Positions 12,901 through 26,669 of a DNA stretch of 26,669 nt are shown here, one piece after another (the stretch's first letter is position 1; the number at the start of each line of letters is the position of its first letter). The stretch is from Candidatus Bathyarchaeota archaeon (lineage in GTDB: Archaea > Thermoproteota > Bathyarchaeia > Bathyarchaeales > Bathycorpusculaceae): assembly GCA_963739305.1 (NCBI GenBank), contig CAVTZU010000027.1:1-26669 (forward strand), written 5' to 3'. The notes under the pieces were generated by a model, which saw only the letters and a list, made by a program, of their open reading frames with translations, searched no databases and was not told the origin of the DNA. Position numbers and translations under genes: made by a program.

Positions 12901-13552
12901 AGTCAAACACTCCTGAACAGAAGGCGGTTTTTGCATAGGCCCTTGCGAGTTCGAAGGGATCTTTAGAGGAGGTAAGAGACTTGATCGCTTGTTCTCCATG
13001 TTCTACTGCCTCTCTCATCAGCTTCTCGCGGGTTTGAAAATCCCATTCAAAGCAGAATCCGAGAACAGGGCTGTTTGAAAGCTGGTTGTAAGTTATCCCA
13101 TACTCCAGTTGGTCACCTATCTCCTGAAACACCCCCAGACTCTCCTTTGTGAGCTTCCAACACTCTTCGAGCAGCCTCTTCTTTTCAGACATATCAGATG
13201 CTAACCAATAACCCACGTAAGCAATCATCGCGTCACACCGAATCGTCCTTGGTTTCTGTTTCTGCCCTCCAATCTTCCCATAGAATTCTTTAGCCCCTTC
13301 ATAGTCTCCAACTACTTGACGCATTCTGTCCCTGAACTCCTCCACACTTTCAGCCTGCATGCCTGCCCGATAGAAATCATAACCGATTCTCTCTTGAATC
13401 TGCCCCATCGTCAAAAAATCCGTCTTAGACACCAAGTCCAAGACCCCCCGGCGTAACTCAATCGCTCCTAGCCAATCATAATTCTCCTCAAGTATCCTAG
13501 CTCTGCCTACGGCACCTCCCAAACCTTCATCCCCAGGCATAGCACAAACCAT
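9941..13552 (-). CDS. 1203-aa TPR-like helical-repeat protein with beta-sandwich domain and C-terminal winged helix
   Basis: Long Ala/Glu/Lys-rich helical repeats; VELDLVNVGREPG beta domain; C-terminal GWRSFPQIVEEAGVSKRSLYG...LSELQKKGLV...GERGRGG wHTH. Confidence 0.75.
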   Translation of the reverse strand: MVCAMPGDEGLGGAVGRARILEENYDWLGAIELRRGVLDLVSKTDFLTMGQIQERIGYDFYRAGMQAESVEEFRDRMRQVVGDYEGAKEFYGKIGGQKQKPRTIRCDAMIAYVGYWLASDMSEKKRLLEECWKLTKESLGVFQEIGDQLEYGITYNQLSNSPVLGFCFEWDFQTREKLMREAVEHGEQAIKSLTSSKDPFELARAYAKTAFCSGVFDYYFLEISERVKGSQRVQDYWRKAKKLSEEIALLEMLPPVFGGLYLLWGDASDEAFKNLKKALECGRKTRDKFIIGCALDWLTYHSGWSRYKFEDPEKRSRVYKATLRYAEDAMQQYAPISFMSPRADSFWAEWVHIEYYWWLANNETDLGRKLRLLEKAREVAADGLKRAESSEYPDVIAYVNHIFSQTLVSLALMQKNPIEKTRLLEEALEHRKKAIRIVEQLGRFHYWNRGMQLANLATIKYQLADLTKDPETKKRMIRKSLVDSEKSMELAIKEIYHGKTRVQGYFRNLGILQYNSGVWLNHLYELTDDKEHLRKAAKFFAEAAESNRHIRFQNRVAECHWKAAQTYDALDEHLQAAENFGLASENYRFAAEKIPLLIGFYSDYSLYMRAWAEIERSRHEHENEDYGRSRDHYRMCSRLLEITEKWSYQFPYYFAWSLLEHGEALSRLDKLQDAMKVFKRASRSFGDSSDILRRTAEEFENSEEKEEAFKLADIARLRKQYCMGKALMEEAKLSNRKGDRISSATKFAYAARIFKEIAPNLEREEARRDLQFAATTCQAWEKMELAEERGDATLYKKAAELFAKASKISHRKTAELTAEGNSCFCEALELGMKFMATSNRAFYSGVKLRMENAAGYYLRAGLEKPALWVEAAKKLFDAYVYVGNAEAEAEPEKRVRFYSMAERCLELSAKFYGQAGYREKKNEVLQSLERARKQRELAFSLNEVLTVPSVLSSTTGVSMPDSTEKAAGLNGFESVNVRARLSVPKEFVPGEEFQVELDLVNVGREPGLLVRIEGLIPPRSKVLRMPSYCALEGGSLNMRGKRLDPLSVESISIWVQIADVVSVSLSPLVVYVDELGNFRTTRIKETKILPVVEFQSKVAQVVFNCLVNAFVEDCVKRRLSPEKSGWRSFPQIVEEAGVSKRSLYGTGGRLGYGLSELQKKGLVDLQTFLGERGRGGHILRVRIHYERDLVRRYLKEKAPDLLT

Positions 13553-13674: not shown

Positions 13675-14090
13675 CCATCAAAGTTTCAGAAAAGACAATT
13701 GCCATGATAAATGCTCTGCCGAAAAAGTATGGAGACTACCTATTCAGCATGAACTCTCATGCTTTGGATACCACATTTACCCACACCTGAAAAGCACTGG
13801 CAAACAAGCTACAAAACCCAAACCTCTTGCAAATACACTTTCACACGCTGAGACATTGGCGAGGAAAGAAAGAGTTTCGTAAGCACAAGAACATCTACGA
13901 CGCCAAATACATCTTGGGACACAAGTCAATCCTCAGCACTCAAAGATACACCGAAGGCGAAGAATTTCAGGGAGACGAATACTATTCGGCAGAAGCCAAA
14001 ACCAAAGAAGAAGCGAGACAACTCATAGAAGCAGGATACAGCTACGTGACTGACATAGATGGTGTTAAACTGTTTAAGAAGCCAAAGTGA
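13674..14090 (+). pseudogene. Tyrosine integrase, C-terminal remnant
   Basis: TIKVSEKTIAMINALPKK...FTHT*KALANKLQNPNLLQIHFHTLRHW...LGHKSILSTQRY: HxLR, LGH and catalytic Tyr present; in-frame TGA at 13788-13790; N-terminal part absent. Confidence 0.85.
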
Positions 14091-14198
14091 ATGCCATGCG
14101 GAAAATAGGAAGGTTCTTTTCTAGAGAGGAAGGTTTTAATCAAAAACAACTTATTAATGAGGTAATCCCCAAAACATCTTGAAACAGTAGCCCGGGAA

Positions 14199-14298
14199 AG
14201 CCCGGTGGAGGGAAGAAGATCTTTCCGCCGAATGTAGTGGACAAGCATAGTGGCCTTTGGAGCCATTGACGAGAGTTCGAATCTCTCCCGGGCTACCA
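14199..14298 (+). tRNA. tRNA-Gln(UUG) with a 24-nt intron at position 10/11 (14209-14232) and encoded CCA
   Basis: Acceptor AGCCCGG/CCGGGCT; anticodon arm GTGGC-CTTTGGA-GCCAT; T arm GAGAG-TTCGAAT-CTCTC; removing 14209-14232 restores the D arm; TATA-like TTATTAA at 14151-14157. Confidence 0.92.
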
Positions 14299-14433
14299 CT
14301 CTCCAGAGTTTGATTATACTTTCTGCCGAGGGGTTTCGCTCATTTCCCCTATTTTTCTTTTTGTGAGCACCTTGGCGTTGGAATAGGCGGTTTTTTGTTG
14401 GAGACGGGCGGAAGTAAAAATTCTGGTTCTCGG

Positions 14434-15285
14434 ATGTCAAAAGTCAAATTTGACTTCAGTACTGTTCGGACTCGTGTTATTCCGATCTTGAAAAGAGTTG
14501 AGGTTGAGGATTATCCTTCGAAGATCGGGCGCATCTACGGTTGGAGCCGCCAACATGTATGTTACTATCTCGGCAAGCTTGAACAGTGTGGTCTGGTGAA
14601 GCGGAAAGTTCGGAGTCGAGCAGTTTTCTATGAGCTGACGGGCCGAGGTAAAACTTTTCTCGCATCATGTGAGGACGTCGTCTTCGGTAGTGGTGTGTAC
14701 CGGCTGGACAGGTGTCAGGTGCGTTTTGGGATTGTGGCTGAGGGTTGTTTGCCCTTGGATTTTCGTCGTGTTGAGATGGTTAATTGGACGGCTTTGTTGG
14801 GGCTCGAGCAGGGTGTTCATGTGAGGCATACGTCGCGATCTTGGATTGTGCATGTGGAGACTTTGTATGGGAAGCATCCTGGTGAGTTGTTTGTTTTGGC
14901 GAAGAATCTTGCTGATCGTGTTGCAAAGAGTCTGATGCTGAAGTACGGGTGCAGATTAGCTGAGGGTGAGGTTTGTCCTGGTTATGAGTTGAAGGTTGAT
15001 GATCCTGTGGCGAAGCTTCTTGCTCGGTATTTTTGTGTGAGTACGCCGGAGAGGAAGATTGATCACAGTCCCGGTTGGGATCAAGGTGAGCTTGAGAACC
15101 TGAGTAGGGACGCTGCTGTTGAGTATCTGTTGATGCCTGAGCGCGTCAAGAAACTCGAGGGCCAGGTTCAAGTGTTGCATGTGGATCTCGAGGAGCTCAC
15201 TGAGGCTCTGAAGAAGATTTTCAATTCGGAAGTTCCTGGAGGGCTCGGACCTGAGCAGAGGAGGCTGCCTGATTATGTCAGTTAG
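14434..15285 (+). CDS. N-terminal winged-helix protein of the mobile element (regulator or replication-associated)
   Basis: YPSKIGRIYGWSRQHVCYYLGKLEQCGLV...YELTGRGK MarR-like wHTH; C-terminal coiled coil; ATG at 14434 preferred over TTG at 14395. Confidence 0.7.
   Translation: MSKVKFDFSTVRTRVIPILKRVEVEDYPSKIGRIYGWSRQHVCYYLGKLEQCGLVKRKVRSRAVFYELTGRGKTFLASCEDVVFGSGVYRLDRCQVRFGIVAEGCLPLDFRRVEMVNWTALLGLEQGVHVRHTSRSWIVHVETLYGKHPGELFVLAKNLADRVAKSLMLKYGCRLAEGEVCPGYELKVDDPVAKLLARYFCVSTPERKIDHSPGWDQGELENLSRDAAVEYLLMPERVKKLEGQVQVLHVDLEELTEALKKIFNSEVPGGLGPEQRRLPDYVS
14441..14456. promoter_or_regulatory. Perfect 16-bp palindrome AAGTCAAATTTGACTT
   Basis: Lies just inside the start of the wHTH gene. Confidence 0.45.
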
Positions 15286-17379: not shown

Positions 17380-18768
17380 ATGTTGTTTTTGAAGAGAAGA
17401 TTCGTTTCGGCAATAGCGTTTACACTACTTTTAGTAGGGATGTTTACCGTGGCATTTAACATTCAAGTAGTCAAGGCTGATGTTGGGACGATTTACATTT
17501 GGGCCGATGGAAGCATATACCCGCCGACAGCACCAATCTCAACCGTTGACAACGTCACTTACACTCTAACTGGCAACATCACTAGCAACGCTGAGGGAAT
17601 TATCGTTGGAAGAAGCAACATAATCTTGGATGGAAATGGATACATGCTTCTAGGAGGAGAAAATGGCAGTCGAGGGATAGATCTGTCTTTTACAGCCAAT
17701 GTGACGATCAGGAACATGCAAATAAGAAACTTCTTCAATGGCATCTACTCCTACAATTCTTCAGACAACACAATTTCTGGAAATGAGTTGGTGGCAAATA
17801 GTTGGGAGGGCATTTCTCTCGATACTTATTCAAACAACTTCATCATTTCAGGAAACAACATAACAGGCAACCATGGAGGCATCGGGCTTTACTATTGTCT
17901 AGATTGTAACAACAGTATTTCTAGGAACAACATAAAAGACATGGAATACGGCATCTTTATCGACTTCACGTCATACAGCAGAATTTTTGAAAATAGCATA
18001 GCAGACAATGGGAAAGGCTTGTGGCTTGCAACCTCCTCAAACAACACGATATATCATAATAACTTCATGAACAACACAGTTCAGGTGGCTATCAGTAACA
18101 AGGGTCAAAATACTTGGGACAATGGTCATGAAGGCAACTATTGGAGTGATTACAACGGAACAGACATCCGGAGCGGACCATACCAGAACGAGACTGGAAG
18201 CGACGGAATAGGCGACACGCCTTACGTCATCGATGCGTACAATAAGGACAGGTACCCACGCGGGGTTTTCAGGCTCGCAGGAGACTTGAATGGGGATGGT
18301 ATAGTAGACATTCTTGACGCTATTCAGGCTGCATCAGCATTCGGGTCTAGCCCTGGAAATCCCAATTGGAACAGTCAAGCAGACCTCAACAACGACGGCA
18401 TCATCGACATTTTTGACATCATCATATTGGCAGGCAACTTCGAAAAGACCACCGGGCAACAGGCTGACGTCATGCTCTACAAAGCGAACGTGAACTTCTA
18501 CTTCGACAACGTTAGCAGCGTCAAGAGAATCGACGTTGACATTGGCAACTCAGGAACCACAGACACAACGATAACGACGCTCTACATTGGGCTTTCAGCC
18601 TCGAATCTTGTAAACCAGACAATTACCCCGCAATCACTCGTGCACGGCGGAATAGCAAGGATAACTATTAATTATAATTGGACAACAGGAACGACATACT
18701 ACTTCAAAGTGTTTTCTCAACAAGGTCAGACAATCAATTGGCCAGAACAAGCACCGACTACGGCGTAA
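17380..18768 (+). CDS. NosD-like beta-helix protein with dockerin and an extra C-terminal pilin-like beta domain
   Basis: Signal peptide; beta-helix repeats; GNYWSDY...DGIGDTPY; GDLNGDGIVDILD...ADLNNDGIIDIFD; ~100-aa tail with IGNSGT and WTTGTTYYFKV. Confidence 0.85.
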   Translation: MLFLKRRFVSAIAFTLLLVGMFTVAFNIQVVKADVGTIYIWADGSIYPPTAPISTVDNVTYTLTGNITSNAEGIIVGRSNIILDGNGYMLLGGENGSRGIDLSFTANVTIRNMQIRNFFNGIYSYNSSDNTISGNELVANSWEGISLDTYSNNFIISGNNITGNHGGIGLYYCLDCNNSISRNNIKDMEYGIFIDFTSYSRIFENSIADNGKGLWLATSSNNTIYHNNFMNNTVQVAISNKGQNTWDNGHEGNYWSDYNGTDIRSGPYQNETGSDGIGDTPYVIDAYNKDRYPRGVFRLAGDLNGDGIVDILDAIQAASAFGSSPGNPNWNSQADLNNDGIIDIFDIIILAGNFEKTTGQQADVMLYKANVNFYFDNVSSVKRIDVDIGNSGTTDTTITTLYIGLSASNLVNQTITPQSLVHGGIARITINYNWTTGTTYYFKVFSQQGQTINWPEQAPTTA

Positions 18769-19252
18769 AGACACTGATTCTGAGTTTCGAAGACTTCGGA
18801 CGGAAGCCACCCCTCATCTTCTAAAAGAAGTCAAAAACCAAATAAACAAACAGTGACTCACGCATAGCATCTCGAAAGGTGCCCGGTTTGCTACCGTTCG
18901 ACGCTGCAAGAACTGGCCTCCGTTGGAGCCACATTATTTGCCTCGGGTACCTGAAGGGGAGGGGAGAAACTTTTTAAGTTGAATCAGGGCTTAGTTATTC
19001 TTGCAGTGCCTACTCATTATTGAGTAGGGTTCTTTTCGCCGCCTTCGAGAGTGGCGCTAGAAGGAAATAGTGAGTGTGATGTTGATTTGTGTCATAGACG
19101 AAGTGAAGCAGCGATAGCTAGGCGCAGGGCTCGTTCCATAATCTTAGCGTGCAGTTTTCGGGATATCCGTAAATCTGAGACTGTTTGCATGGTTAACCGC
19201 GTTGACATCGCTGGTCTCCTGCCTGGACCTGTCGATTACTATCTAGTCCCAG

Positions 19253-19735
19253 ATGTCACAAAAGGCGAAATCCTCGTTGACAGTCGTGGTTCAGGGAGCT
19301 TTCAGCGGTGAAAAAAGCGGGGGGTCCTCAATTTTGGGCGGTAAGACGGCTCGCAAAATTGTGGTAGCCCGTCGTATTTCCCAACTTCGGAGAAGTGTGA
19401 GGTTTGATACTGACCGGTTGAGACGGAAGACTATTGGTAGTCTTGAGCAGTTGTTTGATGTTGCCACTGATTTTGCAAAGGGAAGGATCAAGTGGCAGAC
19501 GCAGGACGGTAAGGCCTCACCGGTTACGATTAAGCAGAGGCAGATGTGGGCTCGTATCGCTGCGTACGTCGCTCAAATCATGAACACGATTGCGAACGGG
19601 ATTGATGAACGACAGATTGACAAGGATTTGGCCTTGCTGGAGAAGCTTGTGAATGAAGCAACGGCAAAAAACAACGGTTCACACTCTAGACCGGAACATG
19701 GCCAAGAAGCGAACGCTCCCAAGGCTCCCAGATGA
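19253..19735 (+). CDS. Helical hypothetical protein overlapping the terminase gene (possible small terminase subunit)
   Basis: Basic, helical; directly upstream of and overlapping terL; start uncertain; function inferred from position only. Confidence 0.55.
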   Translation: MSQKAKSSLTVVVQGAFSGEKSGGSSILGGKTARKIVVARRISQLRRSVRFDTDRLRRKTIGSLEQLFDVATDFAKGRIKWQTQDGKASPVTIKQRQMWARIAAYVAQIMNTIANGIDERQIDKDLALLEKLVNEATAKNNGSHSRPEHGQEANAPKAPR

Positions 19736-20161
19736 TAAAGTCGAGTTTTTCGAACAGGTTCTGAAGATTAAGCCCTTTCCGTACCAAGCTTCGTTTCTAC
19801 TGGATCCTGCTGCTCTCAAAGTGTTGCGGTGGCCCAGGCGTGCCGGCAAGACGATGACGATGGCCGGAGATGACCTTCATTTTGCGATGCATAACGGAAA
19901 CGCGAAAGTCATCGTTACTATGCCGAAGTATCAGCAGATCAAAGAGATCTATTTCCAAGCTTATCATGAACACCTTGCGCGGATGGACCGAGACATCTAC
20001 GAGGCTTACATTGAATCTGAGTTGCAGACGATAATTCGCTTCAATAACGGAACGATTATTCTGGCCGAGACGCCTGAGCCATTCACGATCCGTGGCCACG
20101 GACCCAAGAAGATCAGTATTGATGAGATGAATTTCATTCGGCAGGACGAGGATCTATGGCT

Positions 20162-20171
20162 TAGCGCACGC
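20162..20171. repeat. Junction motif variant TAGCGCACGC
   Basis: At the apparent terminase breakpoint. Confidence 0.7.
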
Positions 20172-20264
20172 TTCTTTTTCACAGTATGGTTTGCAGGAGT
20201 GTGCCATTGGAAGGGAAAGTGGAACATTAGATTTATTAGTGGTACTGGAAAGGCATTAAGGTTA

Positions 20265-20276
20265 AGCGCGCGCTAG
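20265..20276. repeat. AGCGCGCGCTAG junction motif
   Basis: Supplies TAG stops on both strands. Confidence 0.8.
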
Positions 20277-20398
20277 ACCTCAATGACTGAATGACATCTA
20301 GGACAATTCCTAGGATTTCCTTCTGTCTTAAACTCCAGCCCACAGTTCTTACATCTGCAGTTCTTTGCTCTACCATATTTTCTGTATCTTTCACTCAT
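20273..20398 (-). CDS. 41-aa zinc-ribbon protein (below the ORF-track cutoff)
   Basis: MSERYRKYGRAKNCRCKNCGLEFKTEGNPRNCPRCHSVIEV; CxxCG..F and CPxC; AAGGA upstream; stop inside the motif. Confidence 0.75.
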   Translation of the reverse strand: MSERYRKYGRAKNCRCKNCGLEFKTEGNPRNCPRCHSVIEV

Positions 20399-20410
20399 TC
20401 TTTTTCCTTC

Positions 20411-20476
20411 TTAGCGCGCGCGTTGAATTGGGTGGTCAATAACGAATGCAAGTTCCTTGTTTTCTTCGGTTACCAT
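20411..20476 (-). pseudogene. Probable 5' fragment of an ArsR-like HTH gene, cut at the motif
   Basis: MVTEENKELAFVIDHPIQR|AR*; resembles the HPxRxxI start of ArsR-type wHTH; minus-strand GAAAAGGTTAAAG promoter-like element ~30 nt upstream. Confidence 0.4.
20412..20422. repeat. TAGCGCGCGCG junction motif
   Basis: Perfect copy. Confidence 0.8.
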
Positions 20477-20580
20477 ATCAGAATATCAGACTGGTTGACA
20501 CAAGCTCTTTAACCTTTTCAAGGTTTGTCTGAGTAGACGTTGCCGTCGAAGGATTTGACCAGGACCAAAAAACAAGAAAA

Positions 20581-20592
20581 AGCGCGCGCTAG
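20581..20592. repeat. AGCGCGCGCTAG junction motif overlapping the GyrI-like stop
   Basis: Minus-strand TAG (20589-20591) is part of the motif. Confidence 0.8.
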
Positions 20593-20990
20593 AGAATAGG
20601 CAGCAGTAGGATAACTTCATTTTGACTCCTGTAGAACTCGATGTACCAGCGATTAGGATCGCGCCTGTACTCCTGCTCCATCGATTTGAAAGTTTCTCCG
20701 ATTATCTCGACTCTACTGGCAAAGTTCTCGATCTTCTCTCTGGCGAATTTGCCACCAGGAATCGTCCACGTCGGCAATCCAAGCGCTTTTGGTTCTTCCT
20801 CGTTAATGATGGCTACACATGCACGGTACACTTTGTCTTGATCATAATAAGCACCATACATCTTGCGTCCTTTAAGACTTGGAAGATTAGACTCCAGCTT
20901 AGACCAAGCTGTGCCAACTCCAGAAAGACCGCCTTTCGCTTCCATATACATCACTTTCACCGGTTCCAAAGTCACTTCGATCCTAGCCAT
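20589..20990 (-). CDS. GyrI-like small-molecule-binding protein
   Basis: AW.KL, YG.Y, YRACV, TIPGGKFA and IEFY motifs. Confidence 0.85.
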   Translation of the reverse strand: MARIEVTLEPVKVMYMEAKGGLSGVGTAWSKLESNLPSLKGRKMYGAYYDQDKVYRACVAIINEEEPKALGLPTWTIPGGKFAREKIENFASRVEIIGETFKSMEQEYRRDPNRWYIEFYRSQNEVILLLPIL

Positions 20991-21054
20991 TCAAACACCA
21001 CTTTGCCAATCACTTGATAATCGGATATATTTCATATATCCTCTTCGTCTTGTC

Positions 21055-21065
21055 TAGCGCGCGCT
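21055..21065. repeat. TAGCGCGCGCT junction motif
   Basis: Between divergent genes. Confidence 0.8.
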
Positions 21066-21132
21066 GTCCATCCTCTTCAGCCGCCAGTAGATGCCAAAAA
21101 AGACTTTAATGAAAATTGGTTTAGTTACAATT

Positions 21133-21744
21133 ATGAAAACAAGACTTTTGGCGATAGTGGGCTCCCACAGAAAAGACGGCAACTGTTACGCATTAGCCAA
21201 GTCTGTCCTCGAGTCTACAAGTTCCAAGTTCAGAATAATCCAGTTAGCAAGCAAGAAAATTGAGTTTTGCGTTCTCTGCGAAAAATGTGTGCACGAAGAC
21301 TGTGTCTTGACGGATGATCTAAACCAGATTCTCGCAGAGATGAAAAAAGCCGATGCGATAATGTTCATATTCCCTAAGTATCTTTTGGCTTCCTCAAAAT
21401 TCTTGGCTTTCTTGGAAAGACTGGACACCATTGTTCATATGCGAAAACACAAAGGCTACAAACACACCTTCGCAGAACCAAACTATAGGCTCTTACCGAA
21501 GCAACAACCTTTCTGCGTTTTTGCCTCGTCAGGCACGGGCAGATTCAAGAAGGAAACACTGCGTACTGTCGTAGAGTATATCGAATCTCTTGGGCTGACA
21601 TTAATCTCACACGATCGTCCTCCCTTCATAGCGGTCAACGTCAGAACAGGTGACGAAAAGGGCGAAGTCCTAAAGAACAAAGCAGCGTTGAAACAGTGTA
21701 CAGAACTGACAAACAGAGTTATCAAGTCAATCAAGAAAGAATAA
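21133..21744 (+). CDS. Flavodoxin-like NADPH-dependent FMN reductase / iron-sulfur flavoprotein family
   Basis: IVGSHRKDGN; CxxCxxCxxxxC...DD; ATG at 21133 lies ~25 nt after TTTAAT; stop TAA runs into variant GCACGCGC (21745-21752). Confidence 0.8.
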   Translation: MKTRLLAIVGSHRKDGNCYALAKSVLESTSSKFRIIQLASKKIEFCVLCEKCVHEDCVLTDDLNQILAEMKKADAIMFIFPKYLLASSKFLAFLERLDTIVHMRKHKGYKHTFAEPNYRLLPKQQPFCVFASSGTGRFKKETLRTVVEYIESLGLTLISHDRPPFIAVNVRTGDEKGEVLKNKAALKQCTELTNRVIKSIKKE

Positions 21745-22511: not shown

Positions 22512-22518
22512 CGCGCGC
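22512..22518. repeat. CGCGCGC junction motif
   Basis: In the 46-nt gap between convergent genes. Confidence 0.65.
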
Positions 22519-22531
22519 TCTTGATCCGGGA

Positions 22532-23458
22532 CTACTTGGAAAGGAGTCTCCAAGAGAGGACGATTCCAATTACAGATAGTACAATCGCAAACCCAATCAA
22601 TACCCCAAAGTCTAGCAAAAGACTGTTCGAACCTGTCGCGCCTATCAACAGCTGTCTTACTGCATCATTAGCATAACTGACTGGGTTGACCTTCACGACG
22701 TCTTGAAGCCAGGTTGGCATTATCGTTACAGGGAATATTGCGTTGCTTGCGAACAGCAGGGGCAGGTTGATAAGGTTGATGATAGCCACTTGTGTCTGCC
22801 AATCACTTGATCTCAACGCGAGCATAGTGAATAACGCTGACAGCCCCGTCGCCATGAGGAAAATGATGACGAATGTGCCCGCAATTCCGACGACGGTGAA
22901 ATGACCTGTATCCATCCCGAGTATTATTGCGATAACTAGAACTATGGCCGATTGAATCAACGACCTACCCACACTTTGGAGGACTTTGCCCATCACAATC
23001 GCTCCGCGCGCCACAGGCGTGCTTAGCGCCTTGTTCAGGAAACCGAACCTGCGGTCAAACACAACCGACATTCCGCTAAACGCGGAAGTGAACAGGACGA
23101 CAAAGGCAATCATTCCGCAAGCCAGGAATGAAAAGTAGCTGGTCGTGCCGAATAAGTTCAAAAGAATTGCGTTTTGCTCCGCTTGCGTGCCCCCGGCCTT
23201 TGCGATGAACTCTCCAAAGTTCACGGCTTTGCCGAACAACGCGAGCCAAACTACCGGTTGGATTAGCGATGTGATTAGCTGGACTGGGTTCGTGTACCAC
23301 TTTCTCAAATCTCGGTTCGTTAGCGCCCATAACCCATGCAGCGGACTCCTGCTCAGTTTTGGAGCCGCCCTGACTACCATCTGCTTCTCCGCAGAAACCT
23401 CTTCAGGCTGTTCCCCTATTGCTGTTTCCTTGCTTGTTGTCGGTTTGATTTTTTCCAT
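22532..23458 (-). CDS. ABC-2 type exporter permease (DrrB-like)
   Basis: About six TM helices; DRRFGFL...LSTPV; MPTWLQ...NPVSYA; alternative GTG start at 23464. Confidence 0.9.
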   Translation of the reverse strand: MEKIKPTTSKETAIGEQPEEVSAEKQMVVRAAPKLSRSPLHGLWALTNRDLRKWYTNPVQLITSLIQPVVWLALFGKAVNFGEFIAKAGGTQAEQNAILLNLFGTTSYFSFLACGMIAFVVLFTSAFSGMSVVFDRRFGFLNKALSTPVARGAIVMGKVLQSVGRSLIQSAIVLVIAIILGMDTGHFTVVGIAGTFVIIFLMATGLSALFTMLALRSSDWQTQVAIINLINLPLLFASNAIFPVTIMPTWLQDVVKVNPVSYANDAVRQLLIGATGSNSLLLDFGVLIGFAIVLSVIGIVLSWRLLSK

Positions 23459-23473
23459 ACTCACTCCCGCATT

Positions 23474-24502
23474 TTACGATCTTGCTCTTCTCACCGTTAC
23501 GCGTTGTCTAAACATCTGCATCCTGTCAGCTTCTTCTTCCCTCAGACTGCGGCCAGTAAATTCCAGATATGCCTCGTCCAAGGTTGGCTTCGTCAACGAG
23601 ACTTTCGTCACGTGAAGCCCTTTGGATCGAATTAGATCCGTGATTTGTGGGGAGGCTTCCTCTCCGAGCTCCACCTTTATACGATAGTTGTTATCGTTCT
23701 TCTGAACGTTCTTTACCAATTTGATGTTAGCAATATCGGATGAAATGTCCGGCTCTGTCTCCTTGAGTGTAACCACGATGACGTCTCCGCCGATGCTTTC
23801 CTTCAACTCTTCAGGTGAGCCAATTCTTATGATGTGACCGTGATCGATTATGGCTATTCTGTCGCAGAGTGAGTCGGCTTCTTCGAGATAGTGAGTTGTC
23901 AGAAAAAGAGTCATGTGGTATTCATTTTTCAACATTTTGATGTATTTCCAGACCACAGTGCGTGTTTGAACGTCGAGACCGAGCGTTGGCTCATCCAAGA
24001 ATAGCAATTTCGGATAATTGATTAAACCACATGCGAGCTCCAGTCTCCTGCGCATTCCTCCTGAGTATGTGCTCACCTTCCTCTTTGCAGCGTCTTGAAG
24101 CTCTACCAGCTTCAGCAGCTCTTGTGCGTGTGGTTTTGAATCACCTCTTGGTATTCCGTAGAGATCAGCGCAGAGGAGGACGTTGTTAATTCCAGTCATG
24201 TCCTCGTCAGCAGTGTACTCCTGCGGGACAACTCCAACATTTCTTCGCACCTCGTTCGCATCTTTGAATATGTCATAGCCGCAGACCACTGCGTTTCCTG
24301 ATGAAGGCTTGATCAGGGTCGTAAGCATGTTGATGGTAGTGGTCTTGCCTGCTCCGTTAGGGCCAACGAAACCAAAAATTTCCCCCGTTTTGACTTCAAA
24401 GCTTACGTTATCTACGGCCTTCAACTTGCCGAAGGCTTTTGAGAGATTCTCAACCTTCGCAATAATCAGAGGCATTGTAGGTCCGGCTTGCGTTGCAGAC
24501 AC
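23474..24502 (-). CDS. ABC exporter ATP-binding subunit (DrrA-like)
   Basis: GPNGAGKTT, YSGGM, LFLDEPT, TTH; GTG at 24502 with GGAG RBS and TTTATAA ~30 nt upstream. Confidence 0.92.
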   Translation of the reverse strand: MSATQAGPTMPLIIAKVENLSKAFGKLKAVDNVSFEVKTGEIFGFVGPNGAGKTTTINMLTTLIKPSSGNAVVCGYDIFKDANEVRRNVGVVPQEYTADEDMTGINNVLLCADLYGIPRGDSKPHAQELLKLVELQDAAKRKVSTYSGGMRRRLELACGLINYPKLLFLDEPTLGLDVQTRTVVWKYIKMLKNEYHMTLFLTTHYLEEADSLCDRIAIIDHGHIIRIGSPEELKESIGGDVIVVTLKETEPDISSDIANIKLVKNVQKNDNNYRIKVELGEEASPQITDLIRSKGLHVTKVSLTKPTLDEAYLEFTGRSLREEEADRMQMFRQRVTVRRARS

Positions 24503-24568
24503 GTTTGCTCGCTCCTGATTTTTGTCTATTATAAAGCATTGATTCGATTGATATGCGCTATAAAAACA

Positions 24569-24578
24569 TAGCGCGCAC
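24569..24578. repeat. Junction motif variant TAGCGCGCAC
   Basis: Just upstream of the ABC operon promoter. Confidence 0.6.
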
Positions 24579-24641
24579 GACACCAAATCAGGTCTGCAGA
24601 GAACAAGAAGCACATTCAAGAGTTGGCTTAGGTTCAGAAGT

Positions 24642-24818
24642 TCAGGGAAAACCAAAAGAGAGGATTTCTACGCACGTGTCACTTGGATTAGAGTTTGTCA
24701 CTGTCACATTTGCCGTTGCTTGTATGCTAATGTTGTGAAGTGCAATTCTGATATCTATAACCTTTGTAAGCAAAAAGGGAAAGACCACTGTTCCATTTAT
24801 GCCAACTTCTGTTAGAGT
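24642..24818 (-). pseudogene. Start-less 3' fragment of a secreted glycoprotein-like gene
   Basis: TLTEVGINGTVVFPFLLTKVIDIRIALHNISIQATANVTVTNSNPSDTCVEILSFGFP*; beta-rich with NGT/NIS/NVT sequons; begins 8 nt from the motif. Confidence 0.4.
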
Positions 24819-24826
24819 TTAGTAAT

Positions 24827-24834
24827 CGCGCGCG
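24827..24834. repeat. CGCGCGCG junction motif
   Basis: Perfect copy upstream of the acyl-CoA dehydrogenase gene. Confidence 0.8.
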
Positions 24835-24941
24835 GGCGAGCTTGTGCAAGGAGATTTTTCCTTTATGACTTGGGTCCGTCATCATTTCAGTGCACGCACA
24901 AAGGGAACTCTTTTATCAGCGTTTTCTTGATAGAATGATCG

Positions 24942-26117
24942 GTGAGATTCTTGAGCTTTGAGCTAACTCCGGAGCAGAAGATGATAGTAAGTGCGGCCTG
25001 TGATGTTGCGAAAGATTTCGATCCAGAATACTGGCGTAACAGGGACAAGAACCACGAGTTTCCTGATGATTTTTGGAAGGCTTTGATCGACGCCGGCTTC
25101 GTCGGTATTGTTGTGCCTGAAAAGTATGGAGGAGGTGGCATGGGACTATATGAAATGCTTTTGGCAATGGAGACTCTCACTTCTGAAAGCTGCGGGCTGG
25201 CAGGCACATGGTTTCTGTGCCTTACATCAGTTTTTGGCGGTTTGTCCCTTCTCAAGCATGGAAACGAAGACCAAAAAGACAAGTATTTGCCAAGAATCGT
25301 TAAAGGAAGCGAGTTTTGTTTGGGTCTCACCGAGCCGGATGCTGGCACGAACACTCTAAACATCCAGACCACTGCGGTGGAAGATGGAGACCACTTCATC
25401 GTAAATGGAAGAAAAACTCTCATCTCAGGGGCCGACAGAGCGAAAGGAATGGTCCTGATCACCCGGACGACTTCCTTGGATAAAGCGCCGAAGAAAACTA
25501 TAGGTCTCAGCCTCTTCCTTGTGGATCTTCCTAACCCGGCGGTGGAAGTTATTCCGATAGAAAAACACGGAATCAACTACTCAAAAACATGCGATGTTTA
25601 CATTAGTGACCTCAAGATACCTCGAGAAAACCTTCTCGGCGAGAAGGACAAAGGCTGGTATCTCATACTGGACACTCTTAACCCTGAACGAATGTCTTTT
25701 TCAGTCGCTGCTGGAGGACTGGGCATCTTGGCAATCAAAAAGGCCGTCGAACACGCTAAGCAACGAAAGGTTTTCGGAGCACCCATCGGCTCCTATCAAG
25801 CGCTGCAGTTCCCGCTCGCGGAGGCAAAAGCAAAGATTGAGGCTGCCAGACTGCTGACGTACAAGTCAGCATGGCTCTACGACAAAGGACAACCCTGCGG
25901 CGCGGAAGCAGCCATGGCAAAGGTTGCAGCTGAAGAAGCAGGCTATCAAGCCGTCTACCATGCGATGCAGACGTTCGGAGGCTACGGCTACACAGTTGAT
26001 TACGACGTGGAACGCTGGTGGAGAGAGGTGAACCTAATCAGGTTGGCGCCAGTGACCCATCAGATGGCCCTCGCATTCATAGGCGAACATGTCCTGGGCC
26101 TGCCAAAATCCTACTGA
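24942..26117 (+). CDS. Acyl-CoA dehydrogenase family protein
   Basis: PEKYGGGG, LTEPDAGTN, NGRKTLIS, R..FG.PI..YQ and QTFGGYGY motifs; start at 24942 or 24951. Confidence 0.93.
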   Translation: MRFLSFELTPEQKMIVSAACDVAKDFDPEYWRNRDKNHEFPDDFWKALIDAGFVGIVVPEKYGGGGMGLYEMLLAMETLTSESCGLAGTWFLCLTSVFGGLSLLKHGNEDQKDKYLPRIVKGSEFCLGLTEPDAGTNTLNIQTTAVEDGDHFIVNGRKTLISGADRAKGMVLITRTTSLDKAPKKTIGLSLFLVDLPNPAVEVIPIEKHGINYSKTCDVYISDLKIPRENLLGEKDKGWYLILDTLNPERMSFSVAAGGLGILAIKKAVEHAKQRKVFGAPIGSYQALQFPLAEAKAKIEAARLLTYKSAWLYDKGQPCGAEAAMAKVAAEEAGYQAVYHAMQTFGGYGYTVDYDVERWWREVNLIRLAPVTHQMALAFIGEHVLGLPKSY

Positions 26118-26204
26118 ACCCATGCACCTGACGGTAGAAAATTCAATTCATTCTTTCGCGTTAAGCATTAGCGTTTCCTGAACTGGGGTTTTCCGGCGCA
26201 GAAT

Positions 26205-26597
26205 CTACGGTATCTTCTCTTGCCAGTGCTCAACCACTTTTCCGTCAGGCCCAAACTTGAAGAAGAATACGGGTTCGGTGTTCACTTCTTTTTGTGTGGC
26301 GGGGCTTCCGAGAAACGGTGCTTGGTTCGTGGCGGTAAAGGTCGTGTGAGCGTCTACCGTGTCGCCTTCAGCGTGCAGTTCGTCCACGTGCAAATGAATG
26401 TCCCTGAACGCCCAACGGAAGTCGTTGACGAATCTTTTGAAAGCTTCAATTCCTTTGAGGTCGTCTGGTACTCTTGGATTGTGGACAACGATGTTTTTTG
26501 AACAGGTTTCGTCAATAACCGAAAGTGCGCCCTCGTTAAATGTCCGGTCAAGCAACTTGAACGCAACTTGCTTCTTTTCTTCCGATGACATTTCCAT
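26205..26597 (-). CDS. SnoaL-like ester cyclase (NTF2 fold) family protein
   Basis: G.EAFK.F....R.AF.D, AEGDTV, FLG.PAT.K and DGKVVEHW motifs. Confidence 0.85.
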   Translation of the reverse strand: MEMSSEEKKQVAFKLLDRTFNEGALSVIDETCSKNIVVHNPRVPDDLKGIEAFKRFVNDFRWAFRDIHLHVDELHAEGDTVDAHTTFTATNQAPFLGSPATQKEVNTEPVFFFKFGPDGKVVEHWQEKIP

Positions 26598-26669
26598 CTT
26601 TTCACCATCATGATCAGAAATTGCGGCTTAGGTAGTAGCAATGCAAATTTGACCCTTTAAGCTTATCCT

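Follow-up and report, generated by a model that had tools for sequence, protein, structure and literature searches.

The window analysed here is the entire 26,669-nt contig CAVTZU010000027.1 (C27) of the Candidatus Bathyarchaeota assembly GCA_963739305.1 (G000), which comprises 2.32 Mb in 36 contigs with a G+C content of 47%, a completeness of 97% and a contamination of 7.8%. It contains the stump of a provirus in which the gene of the terminase large subunit (TerL) breaks off inside a short, alternating GC palindrome and runs directly into a dispersed intergenic repeat, termed repeat A. Beyond this junction lie two small modules (B and C), a 133-aa open reading frame (ORF) and further copies of the palindrome, the last of which marks the right edge of a variable island (Table 1).

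Table 1. Coordinates of the provirus stump, the junction and the features that follow it in the window.
Feature	Position	Strand	Remarks
Provirus stump	18933..20168	+	Viral left end, TerS-like gene and TerL codons 1-157; ~1.2 kb
TerS-like 160-aa ORF	19253..19735	+	Named by position only, directly before TerL
TerL N-terminal ATPase fragment	19698..20168	+	157 codons; alternative start at 19653; start 19698 fits most relatives
Junction CTTAGCGCACGC	20160..20171	+	Putative crossover somewhere within AGCGCAC (20163-20169)
Dispersed intergenic repeat A	20164..20275	+	~105 nt; GCGC-type motif at each end
Out-of-context ORF tail	20169..20276	+	35 codons of repeat A in frame; stop TAG within the next motif
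Module B	20272..20421	-	41-aa zinc-ribbon mini-gene (20273-20398), between motifs 20264-20275 and 20412-20422
Module C	20422..20591	.	Non-coding; ends in motif AAGCGCGCGCTAG (20580-20591)
133-aa ORF	20589..20990	-	Stop codon part of motif 20580-20591; weak Cass2/GyrI-like match
Motif TAGCGCGCGCTG	21055..21066	.	Partner of two metagenome joints, one going back 893 nt and one between opposite strands
CGCGCGC at right edge of variable island	22512..22518	.	Conserved ABC-transporter backbone begins here

The Truncated Large Terminase Gene

The ORF at 19653..20276 encodes 207 aa, including a tail beyond the TerL part. Its product matched the Pfam family Terminase_6N (PF03237) with 37.4 bits against a cut-off of 22, covering profile positions 5-121 of 215, and it matched PHROG 2 (terminase large subunit) with an E-value of 3.5e-12. 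Walker A (RRAGKT) and Walker B (KKISIDE) motifs were read from the translation and lie, by arithmetic, at approximately 19833-19853 and 20106-20126. A protein search for longer homologues identified 167 relatives, the best of which are 469-484 aa in length and 90% identical across the fragment; the source names of relatives P0028, P0056, P0079 and P0087 are Candidatus Bathyarchaeota or Bathyarchaeia. The ORF (19653/19698-20276) is the first 157 codons of the TerL of a head-tailed virus of Bathyarchaeia.

The first-pass annotation of this DNA, made from the sequence alone, had described a TerL that reads normally to just past Walker B and then breaks, and alignment with intact proteins bears this out. 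Seven full-length TerLs (465-484 aa, 80-90% identical) and a distant 461-aa paralogue encoded on contig C20 could be aligned with the fragment up to ...DEDLWLSA, the last homologous residue being A172 of the ORF (nt 20166-20168). Homology ends neither well before nor well after 20162-20171, the place at which the break had been put. Beyond DEDLWLSA the window continues with RFFFTVWF, where all eight aligned relatives have LLPMTL or LYPML. At the DNA level, in a BLASTN comparison with 80 metagenome loci encoding TerL relatives, all TerL matches among those listed (70 of 88) end at 20140-20175, mostly at 20167 or 20173, and none of these extends beyond 20175.

The window TerL lacks profile positions 122-215, which make up the latter half of the ATPase domain, and the entire nuclease domain. 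The nuclease domain (Terminase_6C, PF17289) is carried by the full-length relatives and not by the window ORF. It was not found in the window, and within the genome it occurs only on the C20 paralogue, which is also the sole match in the assembly to the C-terminal 312 aa of relative P0001 (tblastn); the earlier statement that no nuclease domain follows the break agrees with both searches. As the C-terminal nuclease domain is absent, the window TerL is a fragment and not a functional member of Terminase_6N/6C. The peptide encoded by the tail of the ORF is also found in an unrelated metagenome ORF (P0144), because that ORF too reads through a copy of repeat A.

Three other short TerL homologues (P0122, P0124, and P0128) lose homology within a few residues of a conserved F(K/R)IFSGN. 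This region may be a second fragile spot or a frameshift-prone run, or the losses may reflect contig ends.

Intact relatives of the provirus (L039 and L034) have portal, major head, head-tail adaptor and tail-completion genes after TerL. No portal, capsid or tail genes were found in the window after 20168, and tblastn with the integrase of metagenome locus L025 identified no integrase in the window. When the DNA downstream of TerL in L024, L025, L030, and L037 was compared with the assembly, nothing else of this lineage was found. On the left side, DNA homology with L024 and L025 starts at 18935-18940 and the upstream flanks of all three are mutually unrelated, indicating that the left viral end has been kept in the window. 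The claim that the provirus has been inactivated holds. A 1.2-kb stump is all that is left of it.

The Junction and Its Two Partners

The codons CTT AGC GCA CGC at the break include TAGCGCACGC. Intact relatives read TGG CTT AGC GC(G/A) CT(T/C) TTG CC, where the window reads TGG CTT AGC GCA CGC TTC TTT TTC. The CTT AGC GC shared with intact relatives confirms the earlier suggestion that the left half of the motif consists of TerL's own codons. Written out, the conserved Leu-Ser-Ala-Leu codons give TTAGCGC(G/A)C, which is the palindrome TAGCGCGCGCTA in shortened form. Recognisable D-L-W-L-S-A-L codons are present in 75 of the 80 metagenome relatives, and 19 of these 75 have the full GCGCGC, for example in CTTAGCGCGCTTTTGCC, which resembles the head of repeat A even outside the motif. 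Four of the 75 have AGCGCAC as found in the window, and the three relatives nearest in DNA (82.5% identical) carry the A at this site. Judged from the two partner sequences, the crossover may lie anywhere within AGCGCAC, and the A could come from either of them.

The sequence that follows the break is not random. It had been noted as unrelated DNA, which is correct in that it is not TerL, but it is a defined dispersed element, repeat A, and its first bases are a GCGCGC motif. Both partners at the junction, the TerL codons and the head of repeat A, bear the motif. The probability that a random genome position lies within 3 nt of GCGCGC is 0.39%, or 1.55% for a random intergenic position, and the related viral loci have 1-4 GCGCGC sites per ~20 kb. 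The crossover had earlier been attributed to a chance partial match; its location inside the motif stands, but the TerL site is more than a chance match, given the full GCGCGC in 19 of the 75 relatives.

Metagenome contigs from four public runs (X1-X4), of which X1 and X2 are peat samples, were placed on window positions 18600-21400. A k-mer contig of run X2 spans 19946-20186 with no differences, so that the junction between TerL and repeat A, including the 31-mers over it, exists in reads. Runs X3 and X4 gave low or no cover for parts of the TerL stump, and nothing is drawn from this.

A Genus-Specific Palindrome

The consensus of the motif derived from its flanks is TAGCGCGCGCTA, with no conservation outside it. 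In the 2.32-Mb genome there are 359 copies of GCGCGCGC, where ~23 would be expected from base composition by simple arithmetic, together with 82 copies of AGCGCGCGCT and 29 of the full 12-mer. Within the window, TAGCGCGCGC with at most one mismatch occurs 15 times on both strands, against an expectation of 0.69 and a maximum of four in 100 shuffles.

Gene calls for the assembly are crude and classify 85.5% of it as coding and 14.5% as non-coding. By these calls, 27% of the GCGCGCGC 8-mers and one of the 29 12-mers lie fully within genes, and the remaining 73% of the 8-mers do not. Of the flank distances below 20 nt, 69 are to 3' gene ends and 10 to 5' starts.

The comparison of genomes covered 10 other genomes of the same genus and 30 from other genera of the family and order. 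AGCGCGCGCT is present in 7-114 copies in each of the 10, and outside the genus in 0-1 copies in 28 of the 30 genomes, the remaining two having five and nine; a control with the reversed word gave 0-4 copies. The palindrome TAGCGCGCGCTA is genus-specific and intergenic, and it is usually located just behind stop codons. In the literature searched, neither this motif nor cassettes of the integron type have been described from Bathyarchaeia, and the terms looked for on these two subjects do not occur in PMC11697101.

Repeat A

Repeat A has 21 copies in the genome as identified by BLASTN and nhmmer, and the window copy has the best E-value (6e-26). Among the comparison genomes it was found in nine of the 10 of the same genus and in none of the 30 outside it. 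In most copies the GC motif comes first and a T-rich stretch next (GCGCGC-TTTCCTTTTTCA). The copies outside the window start with ..GCGCGCTTTCC.. or ..TTGCGCACGCC.., and TTGCGCACGCC, which is the variant at the TerL junction, occurs in two copies. The core (GGAACATTAGATTTATTAGTGGTACTGAAAAGGCATTAAGGTTAA) is well conserved and contains a TATA-like TTTATT, and the copies usually finish in a second GC motif, often decayed. Of the other copies, 19 have an upstream gene call, and in 10 of these a co-oriented gene ends with its stop codon 2-22 nt before the repeat begins; downstream genes point either way, at 14 to 7. Given this usual place behind stop codons, the TerL stump is joined to repeat A in the same manner as most host genes are.

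Two structural roles considered for repeat A, that of a structured RNA and that of an attC-like hairpin, were rejected. No consensus fold was obtained from 15 copies (alifold energy 0) and there was no Rfam match; single folds mostly had z > -2, only the window copy folding better than shuffles (z -2.1 and -3.7). A search of 18600-21200 against Rfam at E<=1 gave no match. In view of the T-run after the motif and the TTTATT of the core, repeat A may also be considered a candidate promoter or terminator module.

Many terminal motifs at the right ends of repeat A copies (C12:19123-19140, C17:64725-64740, and C20:2120-2136 of G000) have the form GTGTGTGCGC, TGTGTATGCG, or GTGCGAACGC. They resemble GCGCGCGC after decay through C>T and G>A changes, a pattern that would fit cytosine methylation of the motif. 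At C10:112069-115211 of G000 there is an inverted duplication of a unit consisting of a 314-aa gene plus repeat A, the two repeat copies having equal nhmmer E-values and the same printed sequence. The 314-aa protein may be creatininase-like, judging from its motifs.

The Motif at Rearrangement Boundaries

The motif behaves as a hot spot of breakpoints in this genus. Four independent lines of evidence agree in this, as it recurs outside TerL at the edges of modules, at the ends of blocks that differ between strains, at the right edge of the variable island and at joints in metagenome contigs.

The ORF of module B has rubredoxin-like zinc-ribbon matches that are under the Pfam cut-offs. Outside the window, the module is found at 99% identity in genome G002 and at 96% in G005, while B and C together (20268-20591) are found at 93-97% identity in three places of G009, with different flanks in every copy. 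On its left, module B begins inside the motif in five of the six contexts, with a variable left half-site and a constant right half (GCTAGACC); on its right, the G005 copy stops at the motif. The motif is also where module C ends in the window and in two of the G009 copies, and module C is common to contigs C22 and C10 of G009 up to the motif, the sequences being unrelated beyond; the third G009 copy ends ~60 nt early. The 133-aa ORF that follows module C matched PF14526 with 20 bits (cut-off 27). At the far side of the variable island, homology of the ABC-transporter backbone with G001 (86%) and G008 (84%) starts at window position 22515.

In G002, module B forms the N-terminus of a 299-aa ORF (L108, G002:C1, 1317-2216, minus strand) that matches the NERD nuclease-related domain PF08378 at 58.5 bits. 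One species therefore has these 41 codons as a free mini-gene, and another has them as the N-terminus of a fusion.

The assembly contains many blocks of 95-99% identity, which come from strain variants or duplications. Five of 17 block ends (at least 94% identity, internal on both partners) are within 4 nt of GCGCGC, against 0.4-0.6% expected at random over the genome and 1.6-2.3% at random intergenic sites. One such difference is the swap of a 2-3 kb segment, with two NosD-type genes on one side and a 938-aa ATPase/TPR protein on the other; both edges are at motifs, and the right edge is the head of a repeat A copy. Another is a 4.2-kb indel with two dockerin surface-protein genes, which is flanked by two copies of TAGCGCGCGC where the other contig has one. 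Many contig ends overlap at 95-99% identity, so that the bin holds two strains or large duplications. Window positions 22534-26669 are 97% identical to the end of contig C22 of the same assembly (41614-37482), which stops exactly at the start of the window's variable island.

The two best-supported rearrangement joints in the metagenome contigs are both at motifs. In the first, position 21064 is joined back to 20172 with AT between them (run X1, depth 91, 92 nt on the shorter side; also in X2), as would be expected if the 893-nt A-B-C-D segment, both ends of which are at motifs, formed a circle or were present in tandem. In the second, a low-depth contig (depth 2) joins 20174 and 21054 on opposite strands. 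Loose ends of metagenome contigs fall at the five motifs in 13 of the 24 listed, with 168 more unlisted. A joint from 20412 to 20505 has less than 30 nt on its shorter side, and nothing is drawn from it.

Origin of the Truncation

It is probable that a single motif-to-motif recombination deleted the rest of the provirus. In such an event, the motif copy inside TerL would have recombined with the copy heading repeat A, with a crossover within the AGCGCAC now found at the junction, and the nuclease half of TerL, the portal, capsid and tail genes plus any intervening host DNA would have been lost. The joining would need only the 6-9 nt common to both partners and could have been carried out by host repair or recombination. 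The event would be one instance of a habit of the genus, in which the alternating-GC palindrome is preferred for deletions, insertions, swaps, and duplications. We infer a deletion, a single event, and host repair or recombination rather than a dedicated enzyme; the deletion is supported by the fact that neither a second TerL half nor downstream viral DNA of this lineage is present in an assembly that is 97% complete.

A number of observations weigh against this explanation. The pre-deletion state of the locus was not seen. The TerL site is not a recurrent break, in that LSA is read through in all 11 other short TerL homologues, which end at different places, and all 80 related metagenome loci are intact there, which leaves the TerL event unique so far. 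The assembly contains two strains or duplications and has the contamination given above. The X2 contig over the junction extends only 18 nt beyond it, and since X1 and X2 are possibly the source sample, its read support is not independent. Of the 17 breakpoints between strains, 12 are away from motifs, and in G002 module B starts 3 nt beyond a full motif on the left and stops directly ahead of the motif position on the right. When all repeat ends were pooled, 59 of 820 were within 3 nt of GCGCGC, a count that is inflated because BLAST matches between motif-bearing sequences tend to end at the motif.

A more tentative explanation is that a dedicated, motif-specific enzyme (a recombinase, transposase or nuclease) moves modules bounded by the motif, the AGCGC(G/A)C of TerL being a pseudo-site or secondary site. 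On this account, TAGCGCGCGCTA would be the recombination site of an undescribed, genus-restricted cassette-shuffling system in Bathyarchaeia, a proposal that we regard as possible and rather unlikely. Units consisting of a gene plus the motif, or a gene plus repeat A, would be cut and rejoined at the centre of the palindrome; they could occur as circles or in tandem, and would pass from species to species and make up variable islands. TerL would have been destroyed since its Leu-Ser-Ala-Leu codons mimic the site, and any virus with this word would be disabled as a by-product. An expansion of the motif limited to one genus does require a process that makes new copies, and the variable left and constant right half-sites in five of six copies of module B put the crossover at the palindrome centre. 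The spread of B and B+C across species at 93-99% identity, three times in G009 and each time with new flanks, is consistent with mobility, as is the 21064 to 20172 joint, which fits a circle or tandem copy of A-B-C-D bounded by motifs. The 4.2-kb indel, with a motif copy at each end, resembles a target duplication, and the cargo beside copies of B is cassette-like (GNAT, DUF1801, a GyrI/Cass2-like protein, and a NERD nuclease). However, no recombinase was found in the window or in the two strain-variable segments examined, the latter as judged from translations only. The Y1 transposase (PF01797) had no match in G000 in a search that was positive in six of 14 control genomes, and a tyrosine recombinase 1.3 kb from one of the B+C copies of G009 scored 69.7 bits against an integron-integrase cut-off of 265 bits. 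The lack of a conserved fold in repeat A (alifold energy 0), the fact that the modules are not co-oriented and the absence of a recurrent TerL break among the 11 short homologues also speak against such a system. The earlier comparison of the crossover with secondary-site recombination was not substantiated: no recombinase was identified, the 6-9 nt shared by the partners suffice for short-homology joining, and 11 homologues are unbroken at the site.

A restriction-type cut at GCGCGC followed by rejoining was considered as well. It would yield the observed product with one later G>A change, but the enrichment of the site in the host speaks against a classical restriction target.

Decay of proviruses by deletion is common, and the truncation could in principle be an ordinary illegitimate deletion with random end points in which the motif coincides by chance; other short TerL homologues do break elsewhere, and locus L025 holds only TerS, TerL and a 282-aa portal fragment. 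This is very unlikely, as both end points are on the motif: one end would be placed there with a probability of 0.4-1.5% and the other would have to meet one of the 1-4 GCGCGC sites in a viral locus of ~20 kb, for an estimated joint chance of ~1e-5. The least credible explanation is an assembly chimera in which a TerL contig was wrongly joined to a repeat A contig, which the two strains and many contig-end overlaps of the bin, the multiple copies of repeat A and an X1 contig ending exactly at 20168 might suggest, but TerL and repeat A share only ~10 nt, too short for assembler k-mers, and the 31-mers over the junction are present in the X2 reads.

A motif-to-motif deletion is the preferred explanation. 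As a break it is ordinary provirus decay; the place where it occurred is good evidence that a palindrome specific to this genus guides rearrangements. The provirus was inactivated as a consequence, and nothing supports an antiviral purpose, which had been raised as a possibility. A truncated terminase alone would be ordinary; the unusual part is the presence on both partners of a 12-nt palindrome that only one genus of uncultured archaea has in large numbers. Should the motif prove to be a genuine signal for recombination, it would offer a concrete, testable way into how Bathyarchaeia assemble their variable islands of accessory and surface-protein genes, a rule for forecasting the break sites of genes and proviruses, and a possible archaeal counterpart to genome plasticity of the REP (repetitive extragenic palindrome) or integron type.

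Surroundings of the Provirus Stump

The TerS-like ORF has no Pfam or PHROG match. Similar ORFs occur directly upstream of TerL on contig C20 (L001:1041-1412) and in L025 (9213-9650).

Upstream of the viral left end, homology of the window to a host paralogue on contig C10 ends at 18919. The region 18452-18919, which comprises the 3' end of a NosD/dockerin gene and 150 nt behind it, is duplicated at C10:56518-56978 of G000 with 87-88% identity, and the homology stops 14-20 nt before the viral left end.

Locus L025 was considered as an intact version of the window locus, since it too has a NosD-type gene upstream, but this was rejected as the flanks are unrelated and the element itself is reduced. 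The similarity between window 14233-14306 and the right-hand end of the L025 element suggested an att site, but it is one of tRNA to tRNA, and an att remnant was rejected. Between its portal fragment and integrase, L025 contains a ~500-nt element (12908-13442) with copies of 90-93% identity at C20:93074-93595 and C28:37449-37871 of G000 and one of 75% identity on C23; a 213-aa ORF overlapping it has no Pfam match.

The whole window searched against Rfam at the gathering threshold gave a single tRNA and nothing else. This tRNA gene (14231-14330, plus strand) was missed by ARAGORN, and its Rfam match (38 bits) covers 14231-14287 and model positions 9-63 only. Its identity to a copy on C13 and to the tRNA-Gln of L025 is ~85%, and ~24 additional nt near its 5' end are possibly an intron at an unusual position. 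An ORF that overlaps it (14042..14440, minus strand) is probably not a gene.

Comparison with Known Systems

The window TerL fragment resembles T4-type and Mu gp28-like large terminases (Terminase_6N plus Terminase_6C) in its N-terminal ATPase with Walker A and B motifs. Its loss of the remainder resembles microhomology-mediated deletion of proviruses, in that 6-9 bases are shared, morphogenesis genes are lost and a stump with one viral end is left. It differs in that the shared bases are the genome's own over-represented palindrome, present on both partners.

Repeat A and module B can be compared with miniature inverted-repeat transposable elements, as they carry the palindromic motif at both ends. 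Since the motif is its own inverse, terminal inverted repeats and target site duplications are indistinguishable at these two elements. No autonomous element was seen among the repeats of at least 150 nt and at least 88% identity in the genome.

Likeness to the Correia elements and DNA uptake sequences of Neisseria is found in genus-specific intergenic elements of ~100 nt, in words of 10-12 nt, in a frequent location behind genes and in genome mosaicism. The sequences, however, are unrelated, and there is no evidence in the genus of the window for uptake or for duplication of a target TA.

Integron cassettes share with the present case the unit of an ORF plus a 3' element, mixed small cargo and the occurrence of the same module in different arrays, to which a possible circular form and a pseudo-site within a gene as partner can be added. 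In contrast to integrons, the 3' element (repeat A) shows conservation of its sequence and none of a hairpin, and the site is a 12-nt palindrome and not attC. B and D have their ORFs on the minus strand, and the TerL stump and an FMN reductase are on the plus strand. No IntI-type recombinase was found in the window, and the generic tyrosine recombinase near a B+C copy of G009 is far below the integron cut-off.

The REP sequences of enterobacteria and pseudomonads, and the bacterial interspersed mosaic elements (BIMEs) built of them, are extragenic palindromes that serve as join-points of duplications and deletions and as targets of insertion; REPs are 20-40 nt in length and imperfect, with a conserved head. 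The motif of Bathyarchaeia differs from these in being 8-12 nt long, perfect and of alternating GC, in having an archaeal host and in a genome without a RAYT/Y1 transposase. By analogy, the motif nevertheless appears to work most like the REP/BIME palindromes of enterobacteria, as both are short, GC-rich palindromes with hundreds of intergenic copies, located mostly behind genes, specific to a lineage and found at the join-points of rearrangements.

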